Virus record (IMG/VR): IMGVR_UViG_3300044260_000048
Location: 1-36,220 of that record
Source: a virus
Lineage: Duplodnaviria > Caudoviricetes
Direction: 5' to 3' (one strand)
Length of the DNA stretch: 36,220 nt
Position numbers and translations under genes: made by a program. The notes under the pieces are model-generated. The model saw only the letters and a list, made by a program, of their open reading frames with translations, searched no databases and was not told the DNA's origin. The stretch's first letter is position 1; each line of letters starts with the position of its first letter. This document shows positions 7,889 through 35,333 of the stretch, one piece after another.

Positions 7889-8184
7889 GCGACCGTTCCG
7901 AGGTACGCGAGCAGCGCCGGCCGCCACGTCCTCCCGGCCTCGGTCTTCAGGCGGTGATGGACGGCGCAGAGCATCACGAGGTTGTCGGGCTCCGTTCGAC
8001 TCTTGCGTCCGAGCGCCCCTGAGGCCCGGACGTGGTCGAGCTCCGTCCGCCCGTTGCACGGCCCGGGCATCCCCACCCGGCGCCCGACGCAGCCCCGGTC
8101 CCGGCGGTAGACGTCGAGGCGAACGTCCGTCGGGATGACCGTGCCCCGTGAGGCGTGGAGCGGGGTGTAACGGCGGAGGGTCAT
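7885..8184 (-). CDS. Small HNH nuclease in the recombination module
   Basis: RDRGC...C...ELDHV...DNLVMLCAVHHRLK. Confidence 0.8.
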   Translation of the reverse strand: MTLRRYTPLHASRGTVIPTDVRLDVYRRDRGCVGRRVGMPGPCNGRTELDHVRASGALGRKSRTEPDNLVMLCAVHHRLKTEAGRTWRPALLAYLGTVA

Positions 8185-8828
8185 GCGACTTGCGGCCACA
8201 TGCCGCCGCGGTTGCGGTGCGGGCCCGTGTGACCGGGCGCGAGGGCGCACGGCCCCGTGTCGAGGGTGGCGTCTTCCGCGAGGCAGTAGGCGGGCTTGTC
8301 GGTGAGGGCGGCCAGCTCGTCGTCGGGGACGTCGGGCGGGAGAGTGGACGCCGGCACCGGGGCTGGGCCGCGACGGGCGCGTGGCGCGCGCTCGGGGGTC
8401 TCGGCCGCCTCGGGATCGTCGCCGGTCGAGAGCAGGAAGCCCATGAGGAGCGCGTACTTCATGGCGTTCGTCTGGGCCTTGCCGGAGTACTTGTCCCCGC
8501 CGTCCGCGCCGGCCCCGAATGACTGGATGACGATGCTCTCGCCCGACTCACCGTCGGTGATCGTCCAGTCCATGAGCACGTCCACGGTGGTCATGGACCC
8601 GCCGGCCTTCGTTCCGTGCTCGCTCTGGCCGACCACGGCCAGGCGTGTCGGCATCATGGTGAGGACGTTCTCGGCGAGCGCCTTGCGGATGTAGTCCGCA
8701 GCGTCCCCGACCTGGACAAACTCGAAGCCGCCCATCGCCGCAGGGGCCCGGCCCCGCTTCGGGATCCGCTCCGCCTCGTACATGATCTGCGCGAGCTTGC
8801 GGTGCAGGCTGCGCGTCGGCTCGCTCAC
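8181..8828 (-). CDS. erf: ERF-family single-strand annealing protein
   Basis: GADGGDKYSGKAQTNAMKYALLMGFLLSTGDDPE; GTG 8828. Confidence 0.85.
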   Translation of the reverse strand: MSEPTRSLHRKLAQIMYEAERIPKRGRAPAAMGGFEFVQVGDAADYIRKALAENVLTMMPTRLAVVGQSEHGTKAGGSMTTVDVLMDWTITDGESGESIVIQSFGAGADGGDKYSGKAQTNAMKYALLMGFLLSTGDDPEAAETPERAPRARRGPAPVPASTLPPDVPDDELAALTDKPAYCLAEDATLDTGPCALAPGHTGPHRNRGGMWPQVA

Positions 8829-9631
8829 CCGTCCGTCCCCGTGGGCGCCATCCGGCACGGCCCGCCCATGAGCGGGTTGTACTGGCACGTCAGGCACAGG
8901 CCGGCGTTCTTGGGCCCCGAGGGGAACGTCCAGTTCACGGGGACCTCGGCTCGCCGGTTGAGGAGCTCGTCGGCCCGCTTGGCGCGGACGTAGGCCGCTA
9001 CCCGTTCTCGTGTCCATGAGCGGAAGTCCTCCGTCACATCGCTCTCGATGACCTGCCAGTACGGCTTGACGAGCCGCACCCAGGCGAAGTACCCGACCCG
9101 CGGCACGGCCGCGCCCGTCTCCTCCTCGACCATGAGGGCGTAGAGACCGAGCTCGACCGAGCGGGCCGTCTCCTTCGCCCGCTTGCTCGTCTTCACGTCG
9201 TACACGGCGCCCGAGGCGAGGACGATGTCGGGGTGGCCGTCGACCTCGCCCCAGTCCTCGAGCGGCACGTTCACGTGCGGCTGGAGGCGGCAGAACGACC
9301 AGTCGTACTTGGGCAGGACGTCCGTCCCGAACCGCGTGATGGCCCGCTCGACCTCGTTGAAGTCGACCTCGATCCCGTCGCGTTCGATGACGAGCGCCGC
9401 GGCCTCCAGGGGTTTCGCCGTGTCGGGGAAGCCCGCGCGCGCGGCCGTCAGGAGGTTCTCGACGCCCGCATCGACAGCGGAGCCGAACGTGACGTCGGGG
9501 TTCGGGATGAACGGCCGGCGGTCATGGATCTCCAGCCACGCCTTCTGTCCGCAGAGCTCCGCGACGGCGAGGGCCGACTTGGAGAGGGCGGTGCGCTCCG
9601 AGAGGTCCGGCCGCTCGACGACTGCGGTCAT
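8825..9631 (-). CDS. PD-(D/E)xK exonuclease, Cas4/RecB-like, with a putative Fe-S cluster
   Basis: N-terminal Cys, GHPD...DVKT, ELGLY, C-terminal CLTC...C; next to ERF. Confidence 0.85.
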   Translation of the reverse strand: MTAVVERPDLSERTALSKSALAVAELCGQKAWLEIHDRRPFIPNPDVTFGSAVDAGVENLLTAARAGFPDTAKPLEAAALVIERDGIEVDFNEVERAITRFGTDVLPKYDWSFCRLQPHVNVPLEDWGEVDGHPDIVLASGAVYDVKTSKRAKETARSVELGLYALMVEEETGAAVPRVGYFAWVRLVKPYWQVIESDVTEDFRSWTRERVAAYVRAKRADELLNRRAEVPVNWTFPSGPKNAGLCLTCQYNPLMGGPCRMAPTGTDG

Positions 9632-11260: not shown

Positions 11261-12046
11261 ATGGTAGCCGCGAAAGGTTTCGACACCTTGGTGCCCGCGC
11301 GCGCCAGCTACGTTGTCACGCGGGTCGCGATCGGCGTCCTGCTCGTCATTCTCGCGGCCGAGGTCTGGGTCGGCCTGACGAACCCGCTCGGGCTCCTGCG
11401 CCAGATGGGCGGCGACTATCGGCTCTATACCGGCGCGGCGCGGACGTGGCTCGCGGGCGACGGCTTCTACCGCGACTGGCAGCTCGCCGGGCCATACGAG
11501 GTGACGCTCGCGCCCGGCTCCCGCGGGTCGACGGCGATCCTCTATCCGCCGGTCGCGCTCGCGCTCTTCGTGCCCTTCAGCTTCCTGCCCGCGTTCCTAT
11601 GGTGGGCGGTGCCGCTGCTCGCGATCGGCGCGATGCTCGCCTACTGGCGCCCCTCGCCCTGGGGCTGGACCGCCATCCTCGCCTGTCTCGTCTACCCGAC
11701 GAGCTGGGCGATCGTCACGAACGGGAACCCGTCGTTGTGGGTGGCCGCCGTCGTGGCACTCGCGACGCGCTGGCCGTTCCTCGGGCCGTTCGCCTTCCTG
11801 AAGCCGACCCTCGGCTGGCTCGGGCTCGGCGGACTCCGGCGGCGCGAGTGGTGGCTCGGGGCTCTCGCGTTCGCGCTGCTCTGCCTCGCCTTCGCCCCGA
11901 TGTGGCTCGACTACCTGACGGTCGCCCGCAACGCCCGAGGGGCCGTGCTCGACCCGATGTATTCGCTCTCGAACGTGCCGACGATCGCGGTCGGCCTCAT
12001 CGCCTGGGCGACTAGGACCGCAGCAGCGCCCGCAGGACGTCGGTGA
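11261..12046 (+). CDS. GT87 (DUF2029/PimE-like, GT-C fold) polytopic glycosyltransferase; lysogenic-conversion gene
   Basis: GDYRLY, LYPP, GN and LKP motifs with many TM helices; start uncertain. Confidence 0.75.
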   Translation: MVAAKGFDTLVPARASYVVTRVAIGVLLVILAAEVWVGLTNPLGLLRQMGGDYRLYTGAARTWLAGDGFYRDWQLAGPYEVTLAPGSRGSTAILYPPVALALFVPFSFLPAFLWWAVPLLAIGAMLAYWRPSPWGWTAILACLVYPTSWAIVTNGNPSLWVAAVVALATRWPFLGPFAFLKPTLGWLGLGGLRRREWWLGALAFALLCLAFAPMWLDYLTVARNARGAVLDPMYSLSNVPTIAVGLIAWATRTAAAPAGRR

Positions 12047-16653: not shown

Positions 16654-17355
16654 CTACGTGATCGACCAGTCGGGATCCACCGACTCGAGCTCGATCGAGA
16701 CGGCGGCGATCTCCGGCGCCCGCTGGTCCCAGACGGCATTGAGCGTGCGCGCGGCGATCGTCGCGGTCGAGCCGTCCTCGAGCGCGGCGACGAGGTCGGC
16801 GGGCTCGGCCGTCGGGTCGAAGAGCGTCCGCACCGCATGGGCGTTCGCGCGGAAGTTCGCCCGGTCCCCGCTGCTGCCGGCGCTGTCGACCTCGCGGACC
16901 TGGTCACCCGAATCGTGCGCCCAGGCCAGCGGTGCGGTGAGCGTGATCGTCGTGCCGCTGATGCCGCCCGGCGCGATGCGCCGGATCTCGGTCTCGCCCG
17001 TGTCGCCGATACGCAGGTAGTCGCCGGCGGTCATCGAGCCGTTCGAGGCGACCACGATGACCGCTGCCCCGGCCGCCGCATCAGCCGTCAGGGTCGTATC
17101 CGCGCCGCCGGCCGTCTCGGGCGCCATGGCGGGGGCGCCGGTGCCCATGACGTAGCCGCGCAGCTCGATGACCAGGCGGTCGGCGACGCGGTTGCGCACG
17201 TAGCGGCCCGAGCGCGCCGGGATGACGACGTCGACGCCGCGCACCTCGGGCGGCTCGCCGAGGCCACGCACGAGCTCGAGGAAGATGCCGAGGTCGGAGC
17301 GCTGGACGTCGGTCCCGTCGAACGTGAGGCCGATGACGGCGAGCGGGCTGCTCAT
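16654..17355 (-). CDS. Distal tail (Dit-like) protein with an inserted 81-aa module (16876-17118)
   Basis: Follows the tape measure; ATG 17355; ends ELESVDPDW. Confidence 0.8.
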   Translation of the reverse strand: MSSPLAVIGLTFDGTDVQRSDLGIFLELVRGLGEPPEVRGVDVVIPARSGRYVRNRVADRLVIELRGYVMGTGAPAMAPETAGGADTTLTADAAAGAAVIVVASNGSMTAGDYLRIGDTGETEIRRIAPGGISGTTITLTAPLAWAHDSGDQVREVDSAGSSGDRANFRANAHAVRTLFDPTAEPADLVAALEDGSTATIAARTLNAVWDQRAPEIAAVSIELESVDPDWSIT

Positions 17356-19712
17356 CGGTAGGCCCTCGCTGGCGTGAGCACGCCGAACTCCGACAGCCGC
17401 CGGAGTTGGTTGGCGACCTCGAACGGGTCGCGGGCGCGCAGCAGTCCCTGGACGTTCACCTGGTAGGTGTTCCCGCCGCCCGGCAGCTGCGCCATCGGGA
17501 TGACCGTGCCCGAGACGTTCGGGACGAAGAGCTCGGGCACGCCCTGCTCGCCGACCCAGTACGGGTGTCCGGCGAGGGCCGGCCCGCCGGCCGCGAGCTG
17601 GTCCTTGCCCGGATGGGCATCGTTGCTCTTCCACTCGGGCAGCGGCGTGTTCGGGTGGGTCGTGAATTCGTGGATCGTGCCCTGGATGAGACGGATGACG
17701 CCGAGGATCGCCTCGTAGACCTTCTTCTTCCCGGCCGGGCTCCGCAGGTACGCCGCGAGGTTGTCTACGACGCCCGCGCCGGCTGCGGTGCCGGCCGGCG
17801 GGAGGTCCCGCAGCGCGGCGTCGACGATCTCCTTGAGCGCCTGGGCGTTCGCGCGGACCTGCGGGTCCTTCGAGCGCAGGCCATCGGCGATCGCCTTCGC
17901 AGTGTCCTTGCCGATGATGCCGGCGTCGGGCTTCATCTCCGCGATGCGGCCGAGGATGGCGTCCTTCACGGCCTCCGCCTGGGCGCGGATGGCGGGGTCC
18001 TTCGAGCGCAGCCCGTCGGCCAGGGCCTGGCTCGTCAGCTGACCCGATAGGCGGGCGAACTCGGCCGTCTTGGTGAGCGGGTGCTTGAGCATCTCGATGA
18101 GCGCGTCGAAGGCGTCGACCGGCTTGCGGCGGGCGGCCGTGATCCCATCGGCGAGACCCTGGGCCACGCCGTCGCCGGCGCTCTTCGCCGCGGTGGCGGC
18201 CCGCTCGGCGGCGGTCTCGACCGCATCGGGGATGGTGGCAGCGACCTTGGCCGCAGAGGCGGCGACCTTCGGCTCCGCGGCGGCGATCGCCGCGTCGACG
18301 GCGTCGAGCTGCTGCTGGAGGGCATCGATCTGCCCGCCGTAGAGGAAGCCCGAGAGCGGGCCGGCCGCTCCGCCGATCTGCCGGATCCCTTCCTCGAGCG
18401 CGGCCTTCGACTGCTTCAGCTGCGCGACCGTTCCGCCGGCGATCTGTTTGCCGACGGCCTCGCCGATCTCCGTCGTCTGCTGCTGGAGCCCGGGGTCCAA
18501 GATGAGCGACTTGAAGGCGACGACGACGCTGGCGGCCACGGCGGCCATGCCGAGCGGGATCGCGAGGGCGATGGCGCTGCCCAGGGCGGTGCCGCTCGAG
18601 AGGCCGACCGAGGCCATGACCGGCGCCAGCATCGCAATCATCCGCGGGCCCAGCAGCCCCGCGATGCCACCGACCCCGCCGAGGATGCCCTTGAGCAGCC
18701 CGGGCCCGACGACCGAGGCGGCCATGATGAGCGGCCCGAAGTTCGTCCCGAACTCGGCCAGCGCGCCCGTGGCGTTCTTGAGGATGAGCTGGAACTGGGC
18801 ACCGAAGCCCGACTCGACGGCCTTGGCCGCGTTCGTCGTCGCGCCGGCGGCCTCGTCCATGCTGATGCCGAACTGGCTGAGGTCGCCACCCGACGCGGCC
18901 AGCGCCGCGGCGAGCTGCGGCCCCGCCCGGTTGCCGAAGAGCTCGGTCGCCTTCGTCGCCCGCTCGAAGGGATCCTTGGTCGCCGCGATGTCGGCGATGA
19001 GGGCCTTGAGCTCGGCCGGGCTCTTGACCTTCTTGAGCGCCGTGGCGAGCGCCTGGGGCATCTTCGAGGCATCGATGCCCGCGGCGTTGAAGAGGTTGAG
19101 CAGCGCGATCCCGTCGTCGATGCTCATGTTCGCGGCGGTCATCGCCGGCGCCATCCGGGCGAGGGCGTCGTTCGTCTCGGCGATGGATCCGCCGTAGCGG
19201 TGGTGGCTCGCGACGAGCTTGTCGAGCAGCATCCCCGAGTCGGCGGCCGTGAGGTTCCAGGCGTCGAGCGTGTCGTCCGCCTGGCTCACCGCCTCGGCGG
19301 CGTTCTGGCCGGTCGCCGTGGCGAACTTGAGGAACAGGGCCGTCGCGTCGTCGGCCGCCTGGCCGGTCAGCCCGAGGTCGTTGTGGACCTTGGCCATCGC
19401 GGCGCCGATCTCGTCGAAGCCCTGGAGGTTGTTGCGGTACATGCCCGCCAGCGCCTTCTCGGCGAGCCCGGCCTCGGTGGCCGTCATGCCGGTGTCGGCC
19501 TGGAGCTGGCGCGTCGCCGCGTCGAGCTGGTTGGCGCCGGAGAGCGCGGCCCCGAGGGCCATGCCGACGCCCGCGCCGAGCCCGGTCCGTAGCAGGCCCG
19601 ACATCCGCTTGCCCATCGACGTGGCAGCGGAGTCAGCGGCCCGGGCGGCGTTCGCCTCGAACTCGCCGGTCTCGAGGTTGAGATGGACCGACGCGAAGAT
19701 GTCAGCTAACAC
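17352..19712 (-). CDS. Tape measure protein
   Basis: 786-aa Ala-rich helical protein with a hydrophobic middle; C-terminal AAGGP...VGEQGVPELFVP. Confidence 0.92.
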   Translation of the reverse strand: MLADIFASVHLNLETGEFEANAARAADSAATSMGKRMSGLLRTGLGAGVGMALGAALSGANQLDAATRQLQADTGMTATEAGLAEKALAGMYRNNLQGFDEIGAAMAKVHNDLGLTGQAADDATALFLKFATATGQNAAEAVSQADDTLDAWNLTAADSGMLLDKLVASHHRYGGSIAETNDALARMAPAMTAANMSIDDGIALLNLFNAAGIDASKMPQALATALKKVKSPAELKALIADIAATKDPFERATKATELFGNRAGPQLAAALAASGGDLSQFGISMDEAAGATTNAAKAVESGFGAQFQLILKNATGALAEFGTNFGPLIMAASVVGPGLLKGILGGVGGIAGLLGPRMIAMLAPVMASVGLSSGTALGSAIALAIPLGMAAVAASVVVAFKSLILDPGLQQQTTEIGEAVGKQIAGGTVAQLKQSKAALEEGIRQIGGAAGPLSGFLYGGQIDALQQQLDAVDAAIAAAEPKVAASAAKVAATIPDAVETAAERAATAAKSAGDGVAQGLADGITAARRKPVDAFDALIEMLKHPLTKTAEFARLSGQLTSQALADGLRSKDPAIRAQAEAVKDAILGRIAEMKPDAGIIGKDTAKAIADGLRSKDPQVRANAQALKEIVDAALRDLPPAGTAAGAGVVDNLAAYLRSPAGKKKVYEAILGVIRLIQGTIHEFTTHPNTPLPEWKSNDAHPGKDQLAAGGPALAGHPYWVGEQGVPELFVPNVSGTVIPMAQLPGGGNTYQVNVQGLLRARDPFEVANQLRRLSEFGVLTPARAYR

Positions 19713-19773
19713 GCTCGTGGCACACCTCCTTTGTCGTGAGGCGCGGCCGGCCGAGCGGTCGCTGGGGCTGCAT

Positions 19774-20170
19774 TCAGTTCACCTTCACGATGCCGAGCCG
19801 GCCGAGCTTGGCGAGCGCGGCGCGGTACTCGGCCGGCGTCTGGGCCGGCACGTCGGGCAGATACGGTGGCCGCGGCAGGTTGGGCGCCCGGTCCATGACG
19901 ATCTGGTACATCGGCACCGCCGAGCGGCGCAGCGCGTCGCTGACCGCGGCGAACGTCTCGGTCATGCGGTCGCGCTGCTCGCGGTTCATGCGCTCCTGCG
20001 CCTTCGCGTAGAAGAGGCTGACCTGGCGCTCGGTGAGCGCGGCTTCAAGATCGTCGGGGCCGCGGAAGTGCCAGTGGGCGATGGCCCACTCGTGAAGTTC
20101 GCCGAGGCTGACCCGGCGGCCAGGCGGACGAGCGCGAGGAGCATCGCCGTCTGGCTCTGTGCTTGGGGGA
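19774..20170 (-). CDS. Tail assembly chaperone, frameshifted C-terminal (T-like) segment
   Basis: The -1 frame of the chaperone stays open through ELHEWAIAHW...LTERQVSLFY into MNREQRD...; slip site inferred. Confidence 0.6.
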
Positions 20171-20492
20171 AGGCCACCTCCACGAGCTTCGTGTAGATCG
20201 CGTCGATCTCGCGCTCGGTCGCGTCCTCGAGGTCACCCAGGGCGCCCGTGACGTCGTAGGCCAAGATAAGCTCGCGCTCGGCGTCGGCCATCGCGCGCTG
20301 ACCATCGGGCGTGTCCGAGGGGACCCCGACGAGCTCGACGAAGCTCGCCTGGAGCTTCGCCTGCCAGTCGCGGTTGGCGCGCCACTTCAGCTCGGGGACG
20401 AGGCGCGTCGTCCCGTCGATGTCGAAGGAGAGCAGGCCGCGGACGATCTCGAGCTCGGCCTGCTCCTCGTCCTTCTGCTCACGCGGCGACAT
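19986..20492 (-). CDS. Tail assembly chaperone (G-like)
   Basis: Between tail tube and TMP; ATG 20492; C-terminal tail looks like out-of-frame sequence. Confidence 0.75.
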   Translation of the reverse strand: MSPREQKDEEQAELEIVRGLLSFDIDGTTRLVPELKWRANRDWQAKLQASFVELVGVPSDTPDGQRAMADAERELILAYDVTGALGDLEDATEREIDAIYTKLVEVAFPQAQSQTAMLLALVRLAAGSASANFTSGPSPTGTSAAPTILKPRSPSARSASSTRRRRSA

Positions 20493-20859
20493 GGCTGATC
20501 TTCCCGAAGCCCCTGCGGCCGGGTCCTTTGGCTCGGTTGCACGGGCGGCACATCGTCTGGATGTTGTCGACGGTGTTCGGCCCTCCGAGGATGAAAGGCA
20601 GGATGTGGTCGACGCCTCTTCCCTCACCGCAGACGATGCAGACGGGTTGGCGTGCCCAGAGGGCGAGCACGTCCGGCATCGTCAGGTGACCCGGAACACC
20701 CGCCGCCGCGGCATTGCGGTTGCTTCGAAGCGCTGCCTTGCTAGCCGCGTAGTTCAGCGGATGAGCGGCCTTCCACCGCTGGGTTGCTTCGTACTGGCGG
20801 CCGGGCGCGCGCCGGTAATAGCCGCGGAGGTATTCCCGGCGCGCTTCAGTCAGGGGCAT
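20479..20859 (-). CDS. Free-standing HNH endonuclease in the tail operon
   Basis: CIVCG...VDHILP...GGPNTVDNIQTMCRPCNRAK. Confidence 0.88.
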   Translation of the reverse strand: MPLTEARREYLRGYYRRAPGRQYEATQRWKAAHPLNYAASKAALRSNRNAAAAGVPGHLTMPDVLALWARQPVCIVCGEGRGVDHILPFILGGPNTVDNIQTMCRPCNRAKGPGRRGFGKISHVAA

Positions 20860-20865
20860 GACCGG

Positions 20866-21636
20866 TTACCCGATCTCAATCGAGACGGGGCACAGAGTCG
20901 GCGTCGCTCCGTCATAGAAACCCGTCATGATGACGTGCGAGCCGGCCACGACGGCGTCGCTCATCTCGACGTTCAGCTTGCCGTCCGAGAGGGCGTCGGA
21001 CACGGTCACCTTGAGGTGCCGGCCGTCCACGCCGAGCCCGTCGATGATGACGTCCTTGAAGGTGGCGGACGGGACACGACCGGTCGACCAGGTGATGACC
21101 GTCGTCCCGGCGTCGTCGACCTCGACGTAGTCGTCGCCCGCGTCGTGCGCGCGGAGCAGCGGCGTCTCGAGCGTGATGCCCGTGCCGCCGTTGATCGTGC
21201 CGACCCCGCCGACGGCGATCCTGTGGATCTCCTCCTCGCCGGCGTCGCCGATCTTGAGGTAGTCGCCCGCCGTGAGGTTGGCGACGCTCGTGACCTTGAT
21301 GTTCGTCGCACCTGCCGCGACGTCGGCATAGAGGGTGCCCGTGCCGCCGCCGCCGGTGGTGGCCGCGGTGCCGACGACGGAACTCGAGCCGGGCATCGCC
21401 CAGGCGAGCTTGGCGGCCGTGATCTCGTTCACGTCGAACTCGACCGTCGCCTTGATCTTCGTGTTGAACACGGCACCCGAGATGGGCCCGCCGGCGCCCT
21501 GGAACTCGGGCGCGTACTGCGTCGCCTCGACCGTGACCTTGGGAGGCGTGAGGGTGGCCCCGACCTCGGTCCCACCCACCGTGAGCGAGGCGGGGGGCCC
21601 GAAGAACAGGGCGGTGCTATCGATCGTCGTCGCCAC
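20866..21636 (-). CDS. Major tail tube protein with an inserted module (~21106-21360)
   Basis: LFFGPPASLTVGGTEVGAT; AGGAG SD; position. Confidence 0.85.
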   Translation of the reverse strand: MATTIDSTALFFGPPASLTVGGTEVGATLTPPKVTVEATQYAPEFQGAGGPISGAVFNTKIKATVEFDVNEITAAKLAWAMPGSSSVVGTAATTGGGGTGTLYADVAAGATNIKVTSVANLTAGDYLKIGDAGEEEIHRIAVGGVGTINGGTGITLETPLLRAHDAGDDYVEVDDAGTTVITWSTGRVPSATFKDVIIDGLGVDGRHLKVTVSDALSDGKLNVEMSDAVVAGSHVIMTGFYDGATPTLCPVSIEIG

Positions 21637-21667
21637 TGTGGTCTCCTATTCCGGATGTGCTGCCTGG

Positions 21668-22090
21668 TCAGACCGGGATCGCCTGGATGCTGCGGTTGAG
21701 TTCGACCACGCCGTAGGCATACGGCTGTTGCGTGTCGGGGTCCTTCCCCAGCGTTGGCCCTCCTACTGCGGAGCTGTAGTAGATGCCGAGCCCCGAGGTC
21801 GCGACGCGCGGCCCGCGGCGATGGAAGACGGCGGCGCAGGCGAGATAGAGCATCTCGGCCCGAGCGAATGTCTCGGCGTAGCAGCGCAGCCCAAGACTCG
21901 TCATGGCGATGGCGGTCGATGCCTGCCACGGGTCGTCGAGCGTGACGAGCACGACGAAGGGCACGTAGGATCCCGGGCCCTTGGCATCGTTCTCGCCCGG
22001 TTCGACCGGGCGGATGCGCGTCGTGATCGCCGTGACGCCCGCATCGGCGCCGAGCTCCGCGATCGCGGCGCCGAGCGGCGAGAGCGTCAC
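21668..22090 (-). CDS. Tail terminator-like protein
   Basis: GTG 22090; PFVVL...LRCYAET...A; precedes the tail tube. Confidence 0.7.
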   Translation of the reverse strand: MTLSPLGAAIAELGADAGVTAITTRIRPVEPGENDAKGPGSYVPFVVLVTLDDPWQASTAIAMTSLGLRCYAETFARAEMLYLACAAVFHRRGPRVATSGLGIYYSSAVGGPTLGKDPDTQQPYAYGVVELNRSIQAIPV

Positions 22091-22668
22091 AGGACACCCC
22101 TCCCGCGGACCTTCGCCTCGGTCGTCCGGACGGCCTTCTGGGCGATCCGCAGCGCCTCGGTGTCGCCGGCCTTCATCGCGACGCCGACCTGCGCCCGCCA
22201 CGGAGCGGAGGCCATCCGGGCGGCCATCGCGCGCTCGACGTAGGGGCCGGCACCGCGGATCTGGCGATTGACGGCCGGGAGGAGGAACGGGCGGGCTGTC
22301 ATCTTGACCGTGCCGAGCTCGAGGAGGTGCGCGAGATGGCTGCTGAACCAGACGCCGAGGACGGCCTGCCCGGCCGGCGTGTTCATGCCGCGCGGCTTGC
22401 CGGTCCCGCCGACATCGCCGGCGACCTTCTTGCCGTTCGCGTAGACGACGAAGTTCCCCGTGTCGCGCATCATCGGCACGCCCCGCGCCGCCGCGGCCAC
22501 CGGATCCTTCGGTGCGGTCTCCCGGGCGTCGGCGATGATCCGCTCACCGATGGCCGCCAGGGCGTCGGCCATCCCGAGTTGCGCCTCGTCGAGCGCCTGG
22601 CGGTTCATGACGACGCGCGCCTTGCGCCGGGCGGTCAACTTCGCGGAGACGATCGTCGGGCTGGGCAT
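22087..22668 (-). CDS. HK97 gp10-like tail-completion protein
   Basis: AHLLELGTVKMTARPFLLPA. Confidence 0.85.
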   Translation of the reverse strand: MPSPTIVSAKLTARRKARVVMNRQALDEAQLGMADALAAIGERIIADARETAPKDPVAAAARGVPMMRDTGNFVVYANGKKVAGDVGGTGKPRGMNTPAGQAVLGVWFSSHLAHLLELGTVKMTARPFLLPAVNRQIRGAGPYVERAMAARMASAPWRAQVGVAMKAGDTEALRIAQKAVRTTEAKVRGRGVL

Positions 22669-23273
22669 CAGGCGATCCTCCGCAGGCCGAGTTCGAGGTG
22701 ATGCTCGAGCCCCGCCGCGTCGGGGACACTCAGGATGTCGTAGCGCCCGGCCATGTCGGCGGGCGAACCGAGCTCGATCCAGTCGTGCGTCGTGAGGCCG
22801 GCGAGCGGGCGCAGGTAGCCGACGTACTCGCCGATCGCGGCCCCTGCCTGCGACGCCAGGGCGACCTCGCGCGCCGCGCGCGGCTGGATGAGCCCCGCCA
22901 CCGTGGCCACGGTCGTCGCGACCGTGACCGGCTGGCCGTAGTCATCGAGCGTGGGCGTCCCGGCGTCGTCGACCTGGCGGACCTGGTCGCCGCTGTCGTG
23001 GGCCGCCGCGAGCTCGGCCGTGAGTGTGACGACGAGCCCGGCCACGCCCCCCGGGGCCACCTGGCGGATTTCCGTCTCGCCGGCGTCCCCGATGCGCAGC
23101 CAGTCGCCCTCGGCGATGCCCGTCGCGTCGGCCACCGAGACCGAGGTCGCCCCGGCGGCGGTATCGGCGGTGAGGGTCGTGTCGACGCCGCCCGCCGTCT
23201 CGCCCGCGCCGCCGGTGGCCGCGACCAGCCGGCGGACGACGAGCGTATGGCGCAGGCGGTCGTCGAAGCTCAC
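22668..23273 (-). CDS. Head-closure (stopper, SPP1 gp16-like) protein with an inserted 81-aa module (22959-23201)
   Basis: GTG 23273; LRHTLVVRR...DDYGQP...YDILSVPD...HHLEL. Confidence 0.8.
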   Translation of the reverse strand: MSFDDRLRHTLVVRRLVAATGGAGETAGGVDTTLTADTAAGATSVSVADATGIAEGDWLRIGDAGETEIRQVAPGGVAGLVVTLTAELAAAHDSGDQVRQVDDAGTPTLDDYGQPVTVATTVATVAGLIQPRAAREVALASQAGAAIGEYVGYLRPLAGLTTHDWIELGSPADMAGRYDILSVPDAAGLEHHLELGLRRIA

Positions 23274-24058
23274 AGGATGCCTACCGCGTCGGCGAGCGTG
23301 GCCAGGATATCGGCCTGTTGCTCGGCGTAGGGCTTCGGGTTCGACTGGTACGCCTCGGACCAGGTGCCGATCGTCTGGCTGGCGAGGCCGGGCGCGAAGG
23401 CGATGGCCAGGCGGACGAGCTCGAGCTGGACGCGCTGGCGCTGGGCAAGGTCGTCCCACGGCGTGTAGGTCACAAGCACGCGTCCGAGCCAGCGACGGCC
23501 CGGGTGCGAGCCCGAGTCCAGCCGGCGCAGCGTCTCGCCAGTCGGGCTGATCGCGTAGTCGGTCGCGTCGAGCGTCGTCCCGTTCTCGACGACCGAGCTG
23601 ACGCCGGCCGCCCGGCCGCCCAAGAGCAGGAGCTCGCCGCTCGAGGAGAGCCATTCGGTGACCGGGCCCATCGGCCCGATGTAGCGGGTGATCGTTTCGG
23701 CCGTCGCGTCGAGCAGGATGAGCAGCTGCTCGTCCGGCAGGCCCGTGATCCCGAAGCCCTTGAGCTGGGCGAGGGTGAGCGGCGAGCGTCCGAGCGCGGG
23801 CTGCCAGGGCGTCGTGTACTCGCTGAAGAGCGAGCCGCCGACATCGCTGACGCGCGTCCGGTACCAGGTCGACGCGCTGCCGGCCGGGTCCCAGACGTCG
23901 TAGAGGAACTGGTCGGCCACGAGGGCGACCGTCCCACCCTCGACGTAAACACCGTCGACGGTCGCGCTCGACTCCCAGCGCAGCAGCGCGCCGGCGTCGT
24001 AGGCCTGCGGGTCGAGCAGTTCGGCCGGGTTCGTGATCTCGGCGAGGAAGTGGATCAT
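23270..24058 (-). CDS. Head-tail adaptor with an N-terminal Ig/FN3-like extension
   Basis: C-terminal LLDATAETITRY...SQTIGTWSEAY; N-terminal YDVWDPAG...WYRTR. Confidence 0.7.
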   Translation of the reverse strand: MIHFLAEITNPAELLDPQAYDAGALLRWESSATVDGVYVEGGTVALVADQFLYDVWDPAGSASTWYRTRVSDVGGSLFSEYTTPWQPALGRSPLTLAQLKGFGITGLPDEQLLILLDATAETITRYIGPMGPVTEWLSSSGELLLLGGRAAGVSSVVENGTTLDATDYAISPTGETLRRLDSGSHPGRRWLGRVLVTYTPWDDLAQRQRVQLELVRLAIAFAPGLASQTIGTWSEAYQSNPKPYAEQQADILATLADAVGIL

Positions 24059-25573
24059 CTACAGGCTCCGTCCGTCCACGATGCGGGTTGCATCGTCGAT
24101 GCCGAGATGGGTGGCCGGGGAGGCATCCGCGAGATGGATGACCGGCGCCAGGCCGACCGGTGCCGGGCCGAGCCCGCCGATGCCGTGGACGACCGCCACG
24201 CCGCCGCCGGTCGCCACGATCAGGGTCGCGCGGCCGGACCTCTCGCTCGGCGTCAGGACCCCGCTGCCGCTCAGCTGCACGTCGCCGCTCCGGGCCGATC
24301 GCAGGCCGAGGGTGAGGACGCCGCCGCCGGCGAGGGCCACGGCGATCCGGTGCGCCGCCGTGACCGAGGGACTGGCCGCCCCAGCGCCGGTGACGGCGAG
24401 CGAGACGGCACGTGCCGCCAGCGCCGCGACCGTCACCGTGCCGCCGCCGGTCAGATGCGGGCTGGCGCTCGGCTGGACCGTCTCCTTGGTGCCATCGATG
24501 ACGGCGATCCCGCCGCCGGCCGCGCTGACGCTGATCGACCTCGCGCTCATCCGCTCGGGCGTCACCACGCCGCCGCCCGTCATGAGCGGTGCCGACTGTC
24601 GACCTGCCACGACCCCGGCCGTCACGACGCCGGCACCGGTCGCACTCGCCGCCTCACCGTGCGCGCCCCGGGCGGCCACGGTCGCGACCCCGGCACCGGT
24701 CATCGTCGCCACCGACTGGCGCCCGGCGAGGGCGGCTATGCCCACCACGCCGCCGCCGGTGAAGGTGGGCGCGGCGGTGTGCGCGCCACGGGCGGAGGCC
24801 ACGAACACGCCGCCGCCCGTGATGGTCGGGCTGGCGTTGTGGTTCTCGACCGAGACGACGGCGTAATCGAGGACGAACACGCCACCGCCGGTCGCGCTCG
24901 CGGATACCCTCCGCCCGGCCACCGGCGCTGGCGCGGCGACGCCGCCGCCGGTGAAGGTGGGCGCGGCGACATGGGCACCCTTCCCGGACGTGAGCGCGAC
25001 GCCGCCGCCGGTTTCGGTCGGGGCGGAGGCGCGGGCCGTGGTCAGGGCCGGCGTCACGATTCCGCCGCCGGTCATCGTCGGGCTGGCGTTGCGGTTGTCG
25101 GTGAAGTCGACCGTGACGTACAGCCGGTCGATCTGCGCGGTGCTCGCGGTCGAGCTGTTGCCCTTCGTGGCGCGGGCGCGGATGCGGAGCTCGTTCGCCG
25201 TGCGCAGGTCCGTCAGCGTGCAGCCCGTGGCGGTCCCGTTCGCGTCGGCCATCGACGCCGCGGAGCGGGTGATCTCCGAGCCCAGGGTCGTGCCCGACGA
25301 GTTGCGGCGGGCCTGCATGCCGACGAGAGCGCCGGTCGCAGTCGCCGTCAGGCCGTAGGTCGTGAAGAAGGTGACGCTGTTGATGATCGCGCCATCGGGG
25401 ATGTCGGACGTCGTGAAGGCCGGGAAGCCGAAGTCACCCGAGAGCGTGCTGTTCTTCGCCGTCGCGAGCGTCGCGTAGGACGAGTCGTTCGTCGTGGAGT
25501 AGGCGTTCGACGGGTTCGTCCAGCCCGTCGAGACGACCGTGTGGGCGTTGGCGGCCTTCGTGACGGTGGCCAT
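24059..25573 (-). CDS. Fibre-like virion protein with ~15 repeats of ~20 aa
   Basis: N-terminal globular beta domain followed by periodic TGGG/TGAG repeats. Confidence 0.7.
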   Translation of the reverse strand: MATVTKAANAHTVVSTGWTNPSNAYSTTNDSSYATLATAKNSTLSGDFGFPAFTTSDIPDGAIINSVTFFTTYGLTATATGALVGMQARRNSSGTTLGSEITRSAASMADANGTATGCTLTDLRTANELRIRARATKGNSSTASTAQIDRLYVTVDFTDNRNASPTMTGGGIVTPALTTARASAPTETGGGVALTSGKGAHVAAPTFTGGGVAAPAPVAGRRVSASATGGGVFVLDYAVVSVENHNASPTITGGGVFVASARGAHTAAPTFTGGGVVGIAALAGRQSVATMTGAGVATVAARGAHGEAASATGAGVVTAGVVAGRQSAPLMTGGGVVTPERMSARSISVSAAGGGIAVIDGTKETVQPSASPHLTGGGTVTVAALAARAVSLAVTGAGAASPSVTAAHRIAVALAGGGVLTLGLRSARSGDVQLSGSGVLTPSERSGRATLIVATGGGVAVVHGIGGLGPAPVGLAPVIHLADASPATHLGIDDATRIVDGRSL

Positions 25574-26825: not shown

Positions 26826-28298
26826 TTACTGGACCTTGAGGAGCCGGAAGGCGTTCACCGACAGGAGGCCGGTGTCGTTGCGCCACCGGACGAGGATGCC
26901 CCGCTCGGAGAGCGGCTTCCCGTCGCCGTCGAACAGGTTCGGGATGTACTCGCTCGTGACCCCGAGGCGGTCGACGATGACGAAGTAGCTGAAGTCGCCC
27001 ATCAGGACGATCTCCTTGGCGTCCGTCGCGACGTCGTCCATCGCGGACGCCTCGTGCACCGGGTAGCCGCGAAGGGTCTTGCTGATGGCGTTGTAGATGC
27101 TGTCGGACGGCTGGCCGGCGGTGCCGAACGCCGGGACGAGCTGGAGGATCGCGAGGTTGGCGGCCATCTGGGCACGGCTCCGGAAGCGCGGCGGCAGGGC
27201 GCCGATCAGCTTGTCGACGTCGGCCAGGGCGAAGACGTCGTTCGTGATCGTCGGGACGATGCTCGTCGTGTCGGTGATGAGCCGGGCGACGATACCGTCC
27301 GGCTCCGCGGTGCCGGAGCCCATGAAGAACTTCGTGGCCTCGAGGTCGTCCTTGGCGACCTGGACCATGCGGCCGATCTCGGACGCGATGGCCGCGGCAC
27401 CGTAGTCCTCCTGATAGGCGGCGGTGAAGGAGGCGAACGAGCTCGCCTCGACCGGCGTGATTGTCGGGTTCGCGACATCGGCGGGGGCGGACGAGGTGGT
27501 CGCCGTGACCTCCGTCGCCTTGTAAGCGGCGGTCATGCCGGCCGTCGTGACGGCCTGCCACTCCTTCGTCGTGATCGTCTCGACGCGGCTGATCGCGCGT
27601 AGCGGGTTGACCGAGCCGTCGCTCGTGTTCACGAAGGTCGGGTCGATCGTGAACGGGATCGCGTAGCCGCCGTCGGCGTCGGAGTAGGTCTGGAGGACCG
27701 CCTTGAGGCGCTGCGGGACGGCGTTCTCGCCACGGGTGGCGTAGATGCCCCACGCCTCCTCGTACTCCGGGGACCCGGTCGCGAGCATCCGCCGCGCGAC
27801 GGCCCCGGGCTCCCGGTGGCGCGTCGGCGTCAGGAGCTTGGCGACCGCGTGCTGGGCCTTCGCCTTGTCGGCGGTCGGGAACTCCGCTCGCTCGAGGAGC
27901 CGCATCGCGCCGTCGCGGTAGAGCCCGGGCAGCTCGTCGAGGCTCCGTGCCCGCACACGGTAGGCGGCGAGGTCGAAGATGTTGTCGGGCGCCTTGACCA
28001 CGCTCGGGAGGCCGAACCTCGTGGCCGCGGGCTCGCGCTCGGTCCCACGGTCCGCTCCGTCGATGACGGTCTCGACGACCCGGCCGCGGATCTCGAGCTC
28101 GGTGATGGCCTCGGTGACCTGGTCGAGCAGGCCGTCGGTGCCGGAGATCGCCTCGAACTCCGCGCGCTGGTCGGCCGTGAACGGCTTGCCGTCGGCCTCG
28201 GTGTCGAGCTCCGTCAGGCGAGCTCGCAGCTCCGCGTCGGCCTTGCGATAGGCGTCGAGTCCGCGGAGCTCGTCGAGGTCCGCCTTGGTCTGGATCAT
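26826..28298 (-). CDS. Major capsid protein (HK97 fold) with an N-terminal scaffolding domain
   Basis: ATG 28298; DGGYAIP, GSGTAEPDG, LRGYPVHE, GDFSYFVIVDR. Confidence 0.93.
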   Translation of the reverse strand: MIQTKADLDELRGLDAYRKADAELRARLTELDTEADGKPFTADQRAEFEAISGTDGLLDQVTEAITELEIRGRVVETVIDGADRGTEREPAATRFGLPSVVKAPDNIFDLAAYRVRARSLDELPGLYRDGAMRLLERAEFPTADKAKAQHAVAKLLTPTRHREPGAVARRMLATGSPEYEEAWGIYATRGENAVPQRLKAVLQTYSDADGGYAIPFTIDPTFVNTSDGSVNPLRAISRVETITTKEWQAVTTAGMTAAYKATEVTATTSSAPADVANPTITPVEASSFASFTAAYQEDYGAAAIASEIGRMVQVAKDDLEATKFFMGSGTAEPDGIVARLITDTTSIVPTITNDVFALADVDKLIGALPPRFRSRAQMAANLAILQLVPAFGTAGQPSDSIYNAISKTLRGYPVHEASAMDDVATDAKEIVLMGDFSYFVIVDRLGVTSEYIPNLFDGDGKPLSERGILVRWRNDTGLLSVNAFRLLKVQ

Positions 28299-29629
28299 CG
28301 GATCTTCCCTTTCATGCGCTTGTTCCAGCCCGGGTCCGGGCGGCCGATCGAGGCGGCGATCGCCGCCCTGTTGAGGGGAGTGACCGAGGCGGCCGGACGC
28401 GTCCGGCTCGCCTTGGGCTGGAGACGGAGGACCGTGGCCTCGAGGGTGTCGATCCGGTCCACCATGCCGGCCGCCTTCGCCTTGCGGGCGAGGAGGGTGC
28501 GGCCCTGGCCGAAGTCCGCGGCCGCGGCGTCGAGCGTCGTTCCGCGCCCGGCCGCGACATCGCCGAGGAACATCCCGTAGAAGGCGTCGACCTGGTCCTG
28601 GATCGCGGCCCGCGCCTCGTCGGCCAGCGGCTCGAATGGGTTGCCCTCCGTCTTGTAGGGCCCCGCACTGATGAGCGTGGTCTTGACGCCCGCCATCGCC
28701 TCGGCCTGACTGACGTCCTCGTGGGCCGCGTAGACGCCGATCGAGCCGACCTCGCCCGAGGGGGTCATCACGATCTCGCTCATGTTCGAGGCGAGCCAGT
28801 AGGCGGCTGACGCGCACAGGGTGTTGACCTGGCCGACGATCGGCTTCGGCCCCTTGGCGAGCGACCGGAGTTCGGCGGCGAACTCGGGCACCCCGTCGAC
28901 CGAGCCGCCGGGGGAGTCGATATCGAAGACGACCGCCGACACGGACTGGTCGGTGAGCGCCAAGCGGAGCAGCGAGCGCAGCTCGTCGATGCTCGTCCCG
29001 CCAGACATGGCGCTCATCAGGCTCTCGCGCTGGGTGATGAGGCCGTACATCGGGATCACGGCGACGCTGCCCGCGAGCGCTCCGCCGGCGCGGTCGCCGT
29101 TCTGTGCCTTCGCCGCCGCGAGCCGCTCGTCGATCTCCTCGGCCGAGAGGACGATGCCCGAGACCCGGTTGCGCAGGAGGTCGACCATGAACGTGAGGAC
29201 CTGCGCCTGGATCGCCCACGGGCGCTCGTGTAGCGCCTTCGTCACGTGGCGGTAGGACCGCGGCGCGATCAGCGCGCCCGGCTCCGTCGGCTGGTCGGTC
29301 GCCGTCTCCTGGGGCGCGTCGTCGAGATGCGCCTGGAGGTGGCGCTCGATGCCCGGGTGGTCGCTCATCGGAACACTCGACTGACCGAGGCGCGACATGC
29401 CGGCGCGGCAGCCGTTGAGGTTCGCGGCTCCAGGCGTGCCATCGGCAGCCACCTCGTGGTGCGGGAACTTGTAGGCGACCTTCGTGTCGGGGTCCGCCCC
29501 GGAATCGACCCAGGCGTACTCGCGGCGGTAGGTCGCTGCGCCGGCGTCATTGGACAGGCGCGCCTCTGCGGCCGGGCCGTCCCAGGGCGTGTCGACGGTG
29601 TCGGTGTGGTGCACGCCGATCGCTGGCAT
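28295..29629 (-). CDS. S49 (SppA/ClpP-fold) prohead protease with an extra N-terminal domain
   Basis: DIDSPGGSV, CASAAYWLAS, VGSIGV, YKTEG. Confidence 0.9.
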   Translation of the reverse strand: MPAIGVHHTDTVDTPWDGPAAEARLSNDAGAATYRREYAWVDSGADPDTKVAYKFPHHEVAADGTPGAANLNGCRAGMSRLGQSSVPMSDHPGIERHLQAHLDDAPQETATDQPTEPGALIAPRSYRHVTKALHERPWAIQAQVLTFMVDLLRNRVSGIVLSAEEIDERLAAAKAQNGDRAGGALAGSVAVIPMYGLITQRESLMSAMSGGTSIDELRSLLRLALTDQSVSAVVFDIDSPGGSVDGVPEFAAELRSLAKGPKPIVGQVNTLCASAAYWLASNMSEIVMTPSGEVGSIGVYAAHEDVSQAEAMAGVKTTLISAGPYKTEGNPFEPLADEARAAIQDQVDAFYGMFLGDVAAGRGTTLDAAAADFGQGRTLLARKAKAAGMVDRIDTLEATVLRLQPKASRTRPAASVTPLNRAAIAASIGRPDPGWNKRMKGKIR

Positions 29630-34817: not shown

Positions 34818-35333
34818 GTGAACGGATATACTGCGAACGTGGACTTCGCCGAACGGTTCATGTCACACACCCGACCCGAAGGCGACTGCCTGGTCTGGAC
34901 CGGCACCCGACATCGCCAGGGCTACGGACTCACGAAGCAGGACGGCAGAACCCGCCGAGCTCATCGCGTCGCCTGGGAGCTCGAGCACGGCCAAGCCGTC
35001 CCACCCGGTCTGCTCGTCTGTCATTCCTGCGACAACCCGCCATGCGTCCGCGCAGCCCATCTCTTCCTGGGGACCATGCGCGACAACCGCAGAGATGCGA
35101 TGACCAAAGGCCGAACCGCGACTGGCGCGCGACATGGCTCCCGCACGCGACCCGACCGCGTACCGCGCGGACAGCGGAACGGGCTCGCCAAGATCAAGGA
35201 CGTGGAGCTGCCCACGATCAGGGATCGCATCGCGGCAGGCGAGAGCAACGCCGCGATCGCCAAGGACTACGGCGTCGTCCCTGGCGCCATCTGGAACATA
35301 CGGACGGGCGCGACGCATCGGCCTATCCCGTAG
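34818..35333 (+). CDS. HNH homing-type endonuclease with a C-terminal HTH, inserted antisense in the lysis module
   Basis: CLVWTG...AHRVAW...CHSCDNPPCVRAAHL...N; likely leaderless start GTG 34839 after TATACT (34827-34832). Confidence 0.9.
   Translation: MNGYTANVDFAERFMSHTRPEGDCLVWTGTRHRQGYGLTKQDGRTRRAHRVAWELEHGQAVPPGLLVCHSCDNPPCVRAAHLFLGTMRDNRRDAMTKGRTATGARHGSRTRPDRVPRGQRNGLAKIKDVELPTIRDRIAAGESNAAIAKDYGVVPGAIWNIRTGATHRPIP

Follow-up and report, generated by a model that had tools for sequence, protein, structure and literature searches.

An optional module, predicted to be a barrel, carried in-frame by the stopper, tail tube and likely distal tail protein of a Caudoviricetes virus

The window is the whole 36,220-nucleotide stretch of IMG/VR virus record IMGVR_UViG_3300044260_000048. 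Three of its tail genes carry copies of one module (Table 1). The GTG start codon of the stopper gene (at 23273) overlaps the stop codon of the adaptor gene, and the ATG of the Dit gene (at 17355), which directly follows the tape measure gene, overlaps the tape measure stop codon in the sequence ATGA (17352-17355). Because of these overlaps with their neighbours the stopper and Dit genes look real. The virion region of the genome also includes uncharacterised small genes.

Table 1. Module-bearing genes, module copies and other genes of the window referred to in the text
Feature	Position	Strand	Basis or extent
Stopper (SPP1 gp16-like head-closure protein), 201 aa, carries module	22668..23273	-	PF05521 E 9e-4 (below gathering score); fold
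Module copy 1, after first strand of stopper	22959..23201	-	insert vs module-less relatives ~22959-23213, ~aa 21-105
Tail tube protein, 256 aa, carries module	20866..21636	-	phrog_885 major tail; fold
Module copy 2, in tube at JBD30 decoration domain/YSD1 domain 2 site	21106..21360	-	insert ~21106-21372, ~aa 89-177
Likely distal tail protein (Dit), 233 aa, carries module	16654..17355	-	gene position; weak profile/feature matches
Module copy 3, stopper-type, internal in Dit	16876..17118	-	insert ~16867-17142, ~aa 72-163
Tape measure protein, 786 aa	17352..19712	-	phrog_991 E 7e-28, PF10145
ERF-family single-strand annealing protein	8181..9017	-	PF04404 E 4e-8

The stopper and tube labels were confirmed by the predicted folds (whole-protein pLDDT 88.9 and 91.7, respectively). 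The core of the stopper model matched the GTA stopper 6tba_3A (Z 11.6, rmsd 2.4, 103 aligned residues), as well as Milano (Z 11.4) and SF1141 (Z 10.1). PF05521 is present in many stopper homologues, and the gene sits after the adaptor. The tube model matched the Mystique tube 9n71 with Z 13.7 over 228 residues. The protein encoded after the tape measure gene is likely Dit, judged from sequence comparisons and gene position. Among the 89 members of its family nine match phrog_106 and nine phrog_5577, both minor tail families, and an Atlas cluster, 15% of whose members have PF05709, scored 0.95 for the module-less member P0250; both lines are weak support for Dit. The profile search with Dit gave no PDB match.

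An earlier note made from the letters alone had described three in-frame copies, with 55 of 81 residues identical without gaps between Dit and stopper and a more diverged copy in the tube. Translation and tblastn bore this out in full. The Dit and stopper copies are 81 residues each (E 6e-34), and the tube copy shares 58% identity with that of Dit (E 5e-25) and 50% with that of the stopper (E 4e-22). In each host protein the insert, as defined by module-less relatives, is a few residues wider than the 81-residue segment. No fourth copy was found in the window (the next six-frame tblastn matches had E values of at least 0.12, and hmmsearch --max gave none), and five related virus records contained copies solely at the already known positions. 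At the DNA level the Dit and stopper copies agree at 161 of 243 positions, with 59, 64 and 38 of 81 identical at codon positions 1, 2 and 3, indicating that these copies are old and have been maintained at the protein level. An assembly artefact or recent DNA duplication is ruled out by the 66% DNA identity together with the third-position divergence, and is also contradicted by the many other contigs that share the architecture. The only pointers to a host are one 'Actinomycetes bacterium' MAG contig and one 'Coriobacteriia' label. There was no tblastn match in 50,697 GenBank phage records, locus searches with single proteins found no matches in viral contigs, and the Atlas search with the module returned only unnamed clusters plus one head-fibre cluster (0.90).

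In the AlphaFold models of the stopper and the tube the module forms a separate six-stranded barrel (pLDDT 86-98 across the module blocks), in agreement with the proposal that it folds independently. Fold searches gave Z scores of 9.7-12.1 to 9n71, 8rk3_U, 8vjh_B and 7w1c, with an rmsd of about 2 Å for the last three. The best match was the insert of 9n71 (Z 12.1), followed by residues 245-325 of JBD30 8rk3_U (Z 10.1, rmsd 2.1) and Chi 8vjh_B (Z 10.1, rmsd 1.9), both 554-557-residue baseplate chains of Dit type, and by the K1-lyase rider (Z 9.7, 24-27% identity). Lower scores were obtained with the P22 coat I-domain (7.6-7.8), T5 pb9 82-171 (6.7-7.2) and the barrels of EF-Tu, SelB and ATPase (6.4-6.9). 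The module is therefore predicted to fold by itself into an EF-Tu domain II/RIFT-type barrel. The Ig-like framing of the earlier note was not supported as stated, since the fold search favours this barrel over an Ig sandwich, and none of the three copies matched the Ig-like Pfam families (Big, I-set, FN3) at E <= 0.1. The Pfam K1-lyase_Rider profile PF24149 reached 16.1-21.9 bits against a gathering cut-off of 27, over profile positions 3-32 of 89. As to the BppA carbohydrate-binding fold, the top structural matches were barrels in a search that could miss an unlisted family.

In the tube model a helix (74-80) and a strand (84-88) precede the module (89-177), compared with helix 77-83 and domain 88-175 in JBD30. 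The insert thus follows the peripheral helix and the next strand of the core, as in tubes of the YSD1, JBD30 and Mystique type, and by analogy with the outward site of these tubes the module is predicted to face outward. A complex prediction with two tube subunits and a free module scored 0.00, informative neither way. Several other identities were discarded. An intein/Hint domain found no Pfam match and the model resembles other barrels; a palindromic mobile element is at odds with the ordinary DNA folding of the two copies folded (z -0.46 and -1.26); and the Gln after HDSGD, which we take to be part of a motif for a self-forming ester or isopeptide bond, is not conserved in tube copies.

The homologue search mapped clean insertion sites. 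The module was absent from 33 of the 120 listed stopper homologues, 9 of 120 tube homologues and 81 of 90 Dit homologues (present in 9 of 90), in match lists that are biased to module-bearing relatives. With core identities of up to 0.74 (stopper), 0.75 (tube) and 0.70 (Dit) between such relatives and the window, the module is a plug-in, as had been suggested, rather than part of a conserved core. Tubes of relatives carry zero, one, two (tandem) or nested copies, and 25 of 120 are longer by one module-length. Dit-type genes with the module occur in three other contigs, and the module lies at three different positions in such genes (N-terminal, internal and C-terminal). Further domains are nested within the module in three proteins (P0014, P0021 and P0174). 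Among 38 contigs with both stopper and tube genes, the module was found in the tube only in 21, in both in 14 and in neither in 3, so that all 14 stopper-positive contigs were also tube-positive. A strict order of tube before stopper was not significant in these 38 contigs, only three being tube-negative (Fisher p 0.24). For stoppers, 70 of 84 relatives show higher conservation in the module than in the core (0.63 versus 0.58 over all pairs); in tubes the module was more variable than the core (0.40 versus 0.61).

Trees of the module are based on about 83 columns and leave 110 of 230 branches open. The earlier note had inferred spread within this genome. As a statement about all three copies this failed, a single clade being rejected (p-AU 3.4e-5); only a sister relationship of the stopper and Dit copies is compatible with the data (p 0.43). 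Stopper copies of other phages share 80% identity with the stopper copy of the window, whose identity to the Dit copy of its own genome is 68% (rank 52 of 241). One clade was likewise rejected for the single-copy Dit-type modules (p 3.5e-4) and for the single tube modules (p 0.0098). The Dit module of contig L002 groups with modules of that contig's tube type (99% support), with 80% identity to the tube copy and 49% to the stopper copy of the same contig, and the Dit of L044 contains both halves of a tandem tube pair. We infer that the tube and stopper copies are lineage-wide, the stopper gain concerning part of the lineage, and that donors of stopper or tube type supplied the module to Dit-type genes on repeated occasions, into three positions. 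The internal Dit insert may have arisen once. We are highly confident of the anatomy and history of the module as described here.

The module also occurs in enzymes and sheaths. Of 68 long matches in the module profile search, 23 had carbohydrate-enzyme domains (two of these the Rha78A Ig domain only), four were peptidases and 11 sheaths. Enzyme copies reach 46% identity to the tube copy, and enzymes contain the module in long arrays; many of them begin with signal-peptide-like ends as judged by eye. A Gly, an Arg/Lys, a Glu and a His are near-invariant across all host classes, and in the 27 glycosidases and peptidases His was kept in 27 and Glu in 25. The surfaces differ, phage copies being strongly acidic (net charge -7 to -11) with few aromatic residues (median 1-3 in single copies), and enzyme copies near neutral (median -1). 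A further idea is that the module is a promiscuous envelope-binding domain tethering secreted glycosidases and peptidases of soil and sediment bacteria, which a phage clade captured and re-copies among stopper, tube and Dit; the whole tail would then mimic an enzyme anchor of the host and bind through the conserved Glu/His site. We regard this version as doubtful.

Our working explanation is that the module is a mobile, dispensable surface decoration selected for weak adhesion, a reading that we judge equally likely to prove right or wrong. On this view recombination has likely copied an optional 81-residue barrel, predicted to lie on the virion exterior, from one tail gene to another. The tube would have carried it longest and be its principal reservoir, the stopper would have gained it in some of the lineage, and Dit genes would have received it on several occasions from copies of tube or stopper type. 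The copying probably ran through an annealing recombinase of the phage itself, for which the ERF-family protein is the candidate, working on short flanks that code for Gly, Thr and Ala. The module likely lets the tail hold weakly and multivalently to polymers on the surface of host cells. Tape measure length sets the number of tube rings; rule-of-thumb scaling from 786 residues suggests 27-29 rings, whose ~165-175 tube copies would supply avidity, with the 6 + 6 copies on stopper and Dit adding little and perhaps being local or tolerated extras. Adhesion is a plausible, putative function. The K1 rider, which participates in polysaccharide binding, counts in its favour, as do the occurrence in enzymes and sheaths and the greater variability of tube modules than of tube cores; the acidic, aromatic-poor composition, unlike that of typical carbohydrate-binding modules, counts against it.

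The main rival to adhesion, possible although somewhat unlikely in our estimate, is a structural brace. The barrel would wrap the neighbouring subunit and gird each hexameric ring of tube, stopper and Dit, or act as a fast-folding stabiliser like the P22 I-domain. The studied homologues are indeed described as stabilisers: YSD1 domain 2, which shares fold and tube site with the module and is structurally matched by our best match, Mystique 9n71, latches ring neighbours over 950 Å2, and rider mutants lose thermal stability. The conservation of the module relative to the stopper core also fits a brace. However, almost the same module is found on differing host-protein surfaces, namely on the stopper and at the N-terminus, in the interior and at the C-terminus of Dit-type proteins, and a single latch interface cannot suit them all; moreover, relatives build tubes without the module, and the arrays in enzymes speak against a ring-bracing role.

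If the barrel were instead a tolerated passenger, its compact shape and adjacent termini would let it fit any surface loop and be copied by phage recombination, perhaps useful on the tube and nearly neutral on stopper and Dit. Its patchy presence in the 38 contigs, the rare and repeated Dit gains, the domains nested within it and the contribution of only ~12 of ~180 copies by stopper and Dit are consistent with this, but the strong conservation in stoppers, the near-invariant residues in all host classes and the codon-position pattern make it quite improbable. It is very improbable that the module is where a distinct virion protein docks or where module-module contacts form (fibre, cement protein, virion-virion clustering). 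A single acidic surface, conserved across the three rings, would present one binding site over the full length of the tail, and the small virion-region genes are at hand, but no candidate partner emerged and a phage partner would not account for the module in bacterial enzymes.

Returning to the mobile surface decoration, the clade offers a natural series in which scaffolds 70-75% identical to one another, in three different rings, bear zero, one, two or nested copies, which makes adhesion versus stability of outer tail-tube domains directly testable. Loops tolerating inserts of ~85 residues are now mapped in stopper, tube and Dit. The results also tie separately named domains (YSD1 domain 2, the JBD30 decoration and 'oligosaccharide-binding' domains, the pb9 insert, the rider and the I-domain) to one mobile module common to bacterial enzymes.

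The matches to Mystique, JBD30, Chi, the K1 rider, P22 and T5 pb9 mean that the fold and the tube site were already known; in open-access papers we found no report of an EF-Tu-II-type barrel in a stopper. The earlier note had called the host proteins unrelated and such additions usual for one protein at a time. Neither point is supported as stated: tube and Dit share a fold, and inserts in several tail proteins have precedents in JBD30 (tube and Dit) and in the lactococcal 936 phages (Dit, tube and neck). Domain 2 of YSD1/Chi, the decoration domain of JBD30 gp44 (88-175) and the insert of Acinetobacter phage Mystique (9n71) share the module's fold and tube site (here ~89-177), and residues 102-175 of 9n71 match it by sequence too (E 0.006). 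These inserts are only 16-25% identical to the module, and the papers report the tube location and use the term Ig-like; here, the module is optional, sometimes doubled, and 50-68% identical to the copies in stopper and Dit. Inserts in T5 pb9 (82-171), JBD30 gp49 (domains V/VI) and Chi 8vjh_B match it structurally (Z 6.7-10.3), so that JBD30, with one inserted domain in the tube and two in Dit, already has this type in both proteins. Those Dit inserts occupy an apparently tube-equivalent site, are highly diverged and may be ancient, whereas the Dit insert described here lies upstream of a helix predicted from the sequence, is missing from most relatives and has N- or C-terminal counterparts in others. 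The K1 lyase rider (PF24149) and the P22 coat I-domain place the same barrel in unrelated phage proteins, in a single host protein each. Phage Ig-like domains are likewise promiscuous and non-essential. A parallel in distribution is provided by the 936 phages, in which BppA-type modules on evolved Dit, TpeX and the neck passage structure place one class of module at neck, tube and tip, as here. For two of those modules, binding to the host was demonstrated. The BppA-type modules have a different fold and are attached to accessory proteins or to extensions of the tube, whereas the present module is inserted in the core stopper and its binding is putative.

The occurrence of one module in three tail genes is real and reproducible across a clade of uncultured phages. 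The copies in the window were found as described in the earlier note: those in the Dit (likely distal tail protein) and the stopper align without gaps (55/81 identical residues), and the tube copy is more diverged (58% identity to the Dit copy, 50% to the stopper copy). A six-frame search of the window for a fourth copy found none. DNA identity between the Dit and stopper copies was 161/243 overall and dropped to 38/81 at third codon positions, indicating that the copies are old and have been maintained as protein.

As had been proposed, the module is an insert in all three genes. Module-less relatives, whose cores reach identities of up to 0.74 (stopper), 0.75 (tube) and 0.70 (Dit) to the window proteins, align with single clean gaps. 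Among the best 120 of 159 stopper matches, 33 lacked the module, 86 (including one fragment) carried one copy and 1 had a module split by a nested insert. The best 120 of 159 tubes comprised 9 without module (166-173 aa), 86 with one and 25 of 334-345 aa; the long tubes gave two profile matches in 18 cases and one in 7, and of those inspected, P0029, P0091 and P0117 contained tandem pairs. The best 120 of 135 rows of the Dit search included 90 Dits, 9 with module; the remaining 30 were taken up by stoppers (28) and by two Dit-position proteins whose module is N-terminal. On the core tree the nine module-less tubes fall among module-bearing ones (2 changes). This suggests that they lost the module, although matches carrying it were over-represented by the search. 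In P0014 and P0021, the other long tubes inspected, the single module is interrupted by another insert of 80 residues. Such Russian-doll insertions, domains of 60-85 residues nested in the module itself, also occur in stopper P0174, where the nested domain differs from that of the tubes. The stopper-like P0377 apparently carries a circularly permuted module at another insertion site.

The tube and the stopper were modelled with AlphaFold2 (pLDDT 91.7 and 88.9, respectively); in both models the module forms a six-stranded fold apart from the core, in keeping with the suggested independent domain. Its predicted barrel class is named RIFT. The whole tube model matched best the Mystique tube 9n71 (Z 13.7, 228 residues aligned), and the JBD30 and YSD1 tubes also matched; the stopper core matched the GTA, Milano and SF1141 stoppers at Z 10-11.6. 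The module itself matched the insert of 9n71 (Z 12.1 at 25% identity; sequence match E 0.006), residues 245-325 of JBD30 8rk3_U as well as Chi 8vjh_B (both with rmsd ~2 Å, Z 10.1-10.3), the K1-lyase rider (Z 9.7) and a VP1 capsid chain (Z 8.7-8.9). Matches below Z 8, weak taken alone yet consistent with the stronger ones, were the P22 I-domain (Z 7.6-7.8), T5 pb9 82-171 (Z 6.7-7.2) and the EF-Tu, SelB and ATPase barrels (Z 6.2-6.9). There is good support for an outward orientation of the tube copy, because the JBD30 tube domain (residues 88-175), located at the same site, protrudes from the ring. The stopper and Dit copies would presumably also face outward.

A tree was built from 236 sequences of the module; on its 83 columns, and with many forks left open, the modules clustered chiefly by host gene. 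The window stopper copy was 80% identical to the copies of other stoppers versus 68% to its own Dit copy, and the tube copy 87% identical to those of other tubes. AU tests used 55 of the rows, made up of every Dit and locus module and a sample of 22 from stoppers and tubes, with groupings picked after the first tree had been seen. The three window copies were rejected as one clade (p 3.4e-5), so that the proposed spread within this genome is not supported as stated, whereas the stopper and Dit copies together were not rejected (p 0.43). A single clade was likewise rejected for the 14 single-copy modules of Dit type (p 3.5e-4), and also for the 15 modules that occur singly in tubes (p 0.0098).

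Direct evidence of gene-to-gene copying comes from two related loci, L002 and L044. The post-tape-measure gene of L002 encodes an N-terminal module 80% identical to the tube copy of that locus, which ranks 4 of 235 among its matches (one higher match is in the same protein); this module lies within the window-tube-type clade with 99% support. In L044 the corresponding gene's C-terminal end consists of both halves of a tandem tube pair, whose identities to the A and B copies of its own tube are 66% and 63%. Together with the window and L036, whose N-terminal module is of stopper type, the post-tape-measure gene carries the module in 4 of the 13 loci where it is recognisable, at three different positions; in one of the negative loci, L003, the gene extends past the contig end. 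Among 38 distinct contigs with complete stopper and tube genes, duplicates excluded, the module was present in both in 14, in the tube only in 21 and in neither in 3. ERF-type annealing proteins and PD-(D/E)XK-type nucleases recombine short, imperfect homologies. Since the window encodes one of each, copying between tail genes may proceed through the phage's own recombination proteins.

Searched against 1.84 billion representatives, a profile of the three copies matched 852 proteins (E <= 0.001), and many of these contain the module in long tandem arrays. The 150 matches listed included 143 new ones. Of the new ones, the 75 of up to 620 aa included, by PHROG, several tube and minor-tail families, an adaptor and a sheath, most having no PHROG match. 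The 68 longer ones were 23 carbohydrate-enzyme proteins (GH2, 3, 20, 27, 35, 53, 54, 78, 106 and Sde182; two with a Rha78A Ig domain only), 4 peptidases, 11 sheaths, 1 beta-helix protein, 5 others and 24 without family. The best copy per enzyme (n=27) had a median identity of 33-36% to the window copies (maximum 46%). Of the residues near-invariant in the phage clade (Gly41, Arg/Lys60, Gly62, Glu68, His92; stopper numbering), the His was kept in 27/27 enzyme copies and the Glu in 25/27. Phage copies are acidic (charges of -7 to -11 in the window) and aromatic-poor, those in the enzymes near neutral. In the enzymes among P0345-P0457 a full copy is often preceded by a run of partial repeats, each of ~50 residues, and the module sometimes splits the catalytic domain (e.g. 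GH53 P0370, GH27 P0354). Further host classes are the beta-helix protein P0454 and, with a weak copy, a likely tail-fibre gene that follows the Dit in related locus L052 (16517-17740, +).

For a putative role in adhesion we see about even chances. It is the preferred reading because a single conserved module functions on surfaces with nothing in common, including enzymes of unrelated substrates, because the module is dispensable, and because its variation and exchange are more rapid than those of the tube core (conservation 0.40 vs 0.61). The acidic, aromatic-poor surface counts against adhesion, as do the stabilising roles reported for YSD1 domain 2 and for the K1-lyase rider; for the rider polysaccharide contacts are also reported. 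A structural brace, to which these roles would correspond, is the main rival but less likely. That the module is a tolerated passenger is unlikely, and its higher conservation relative to the core in 70/84 stoppers argues against pure neutrality; a docking site appears very improbable. As a rule of thumb, tails measure 0.15 nm per tape-measure residue. With this rule and a reported ring rise of 38-43 Å, the tail was estimated at 27-29 rings, which puts the ratio of tube copies to those of stopper and Dit combined at ~14:1.

The virus record is circularly closed (36,220 bases, G+C 70.7%, terminal repeat 127 bases), and its minus strand holds a siphophage morphogenesis operon: terminase, portal, S49 protease, HK97-type capsid, likely adaptor (by position), stopper, tail completion protein, likely terminator (by position), tube, HNH, likely chaperone, tape measure, Dit-position and Tal-position genes. 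The likely adaptor has an additional N-terminal segment of ~90 residues, probably another decoration, and L036 has such a segment too. The Gly/Thr-repeat protein, which adjoins a gp80/phrog_240-like gene, is a probable head fibre. The capsid ORF overlaps the S49 protease ORF in a different frame, and its long open stretch is probably a start-call effect of the high GC. The membrane protein presumably resembles GT87-type glycosyltransferases; a Pfam search at E 0.001 gave no match.

Coordinates of module copies and other features in the window
Feature	Position	Strand	Remark
Module, Dit	16876-17118	-	
Module, tube	21106-21360	-	
Module, stopper	22959-23201	-	
Membrane protein	11261-12046	+	opposite strand, after tail genes
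HNH endonuclease	20479-20859	-	between tube and likely chaperone genes
Likely adaptor	23270-24058	-	262 aa
Gly/Thr-repeat protein	24059-25573	-	504 aa, many short repeats; weak DUF2807 match
Capsid ORF	26826-29219	-	~330 open codons upstream of capsid match
Second HNH	34818-35333	+	

In a search of open-access papers (among them PMC7385642, PMC12013898, PMC11945409, PMC10684548, PMC9022992, PMC8822698, PMC7291167, PMC11445458, PMC6669499), no report was found of the barrel in a stopper, of its being common to three tail genes at 50-68% identity, of its repeated gene-to-gene copying or of its link to bacterial enzymes. Such similarities may already be recorded in the homology tables supplementing the YSD1 and JBD30 papers. 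The barrel fold on tubes and Dits is already known, under several names. The earlier note had assumed that such additions usually affect one protein at a time; lactococcal 936 phages are already known to reuse one module class at three sites, the neck, the tube and the tip.
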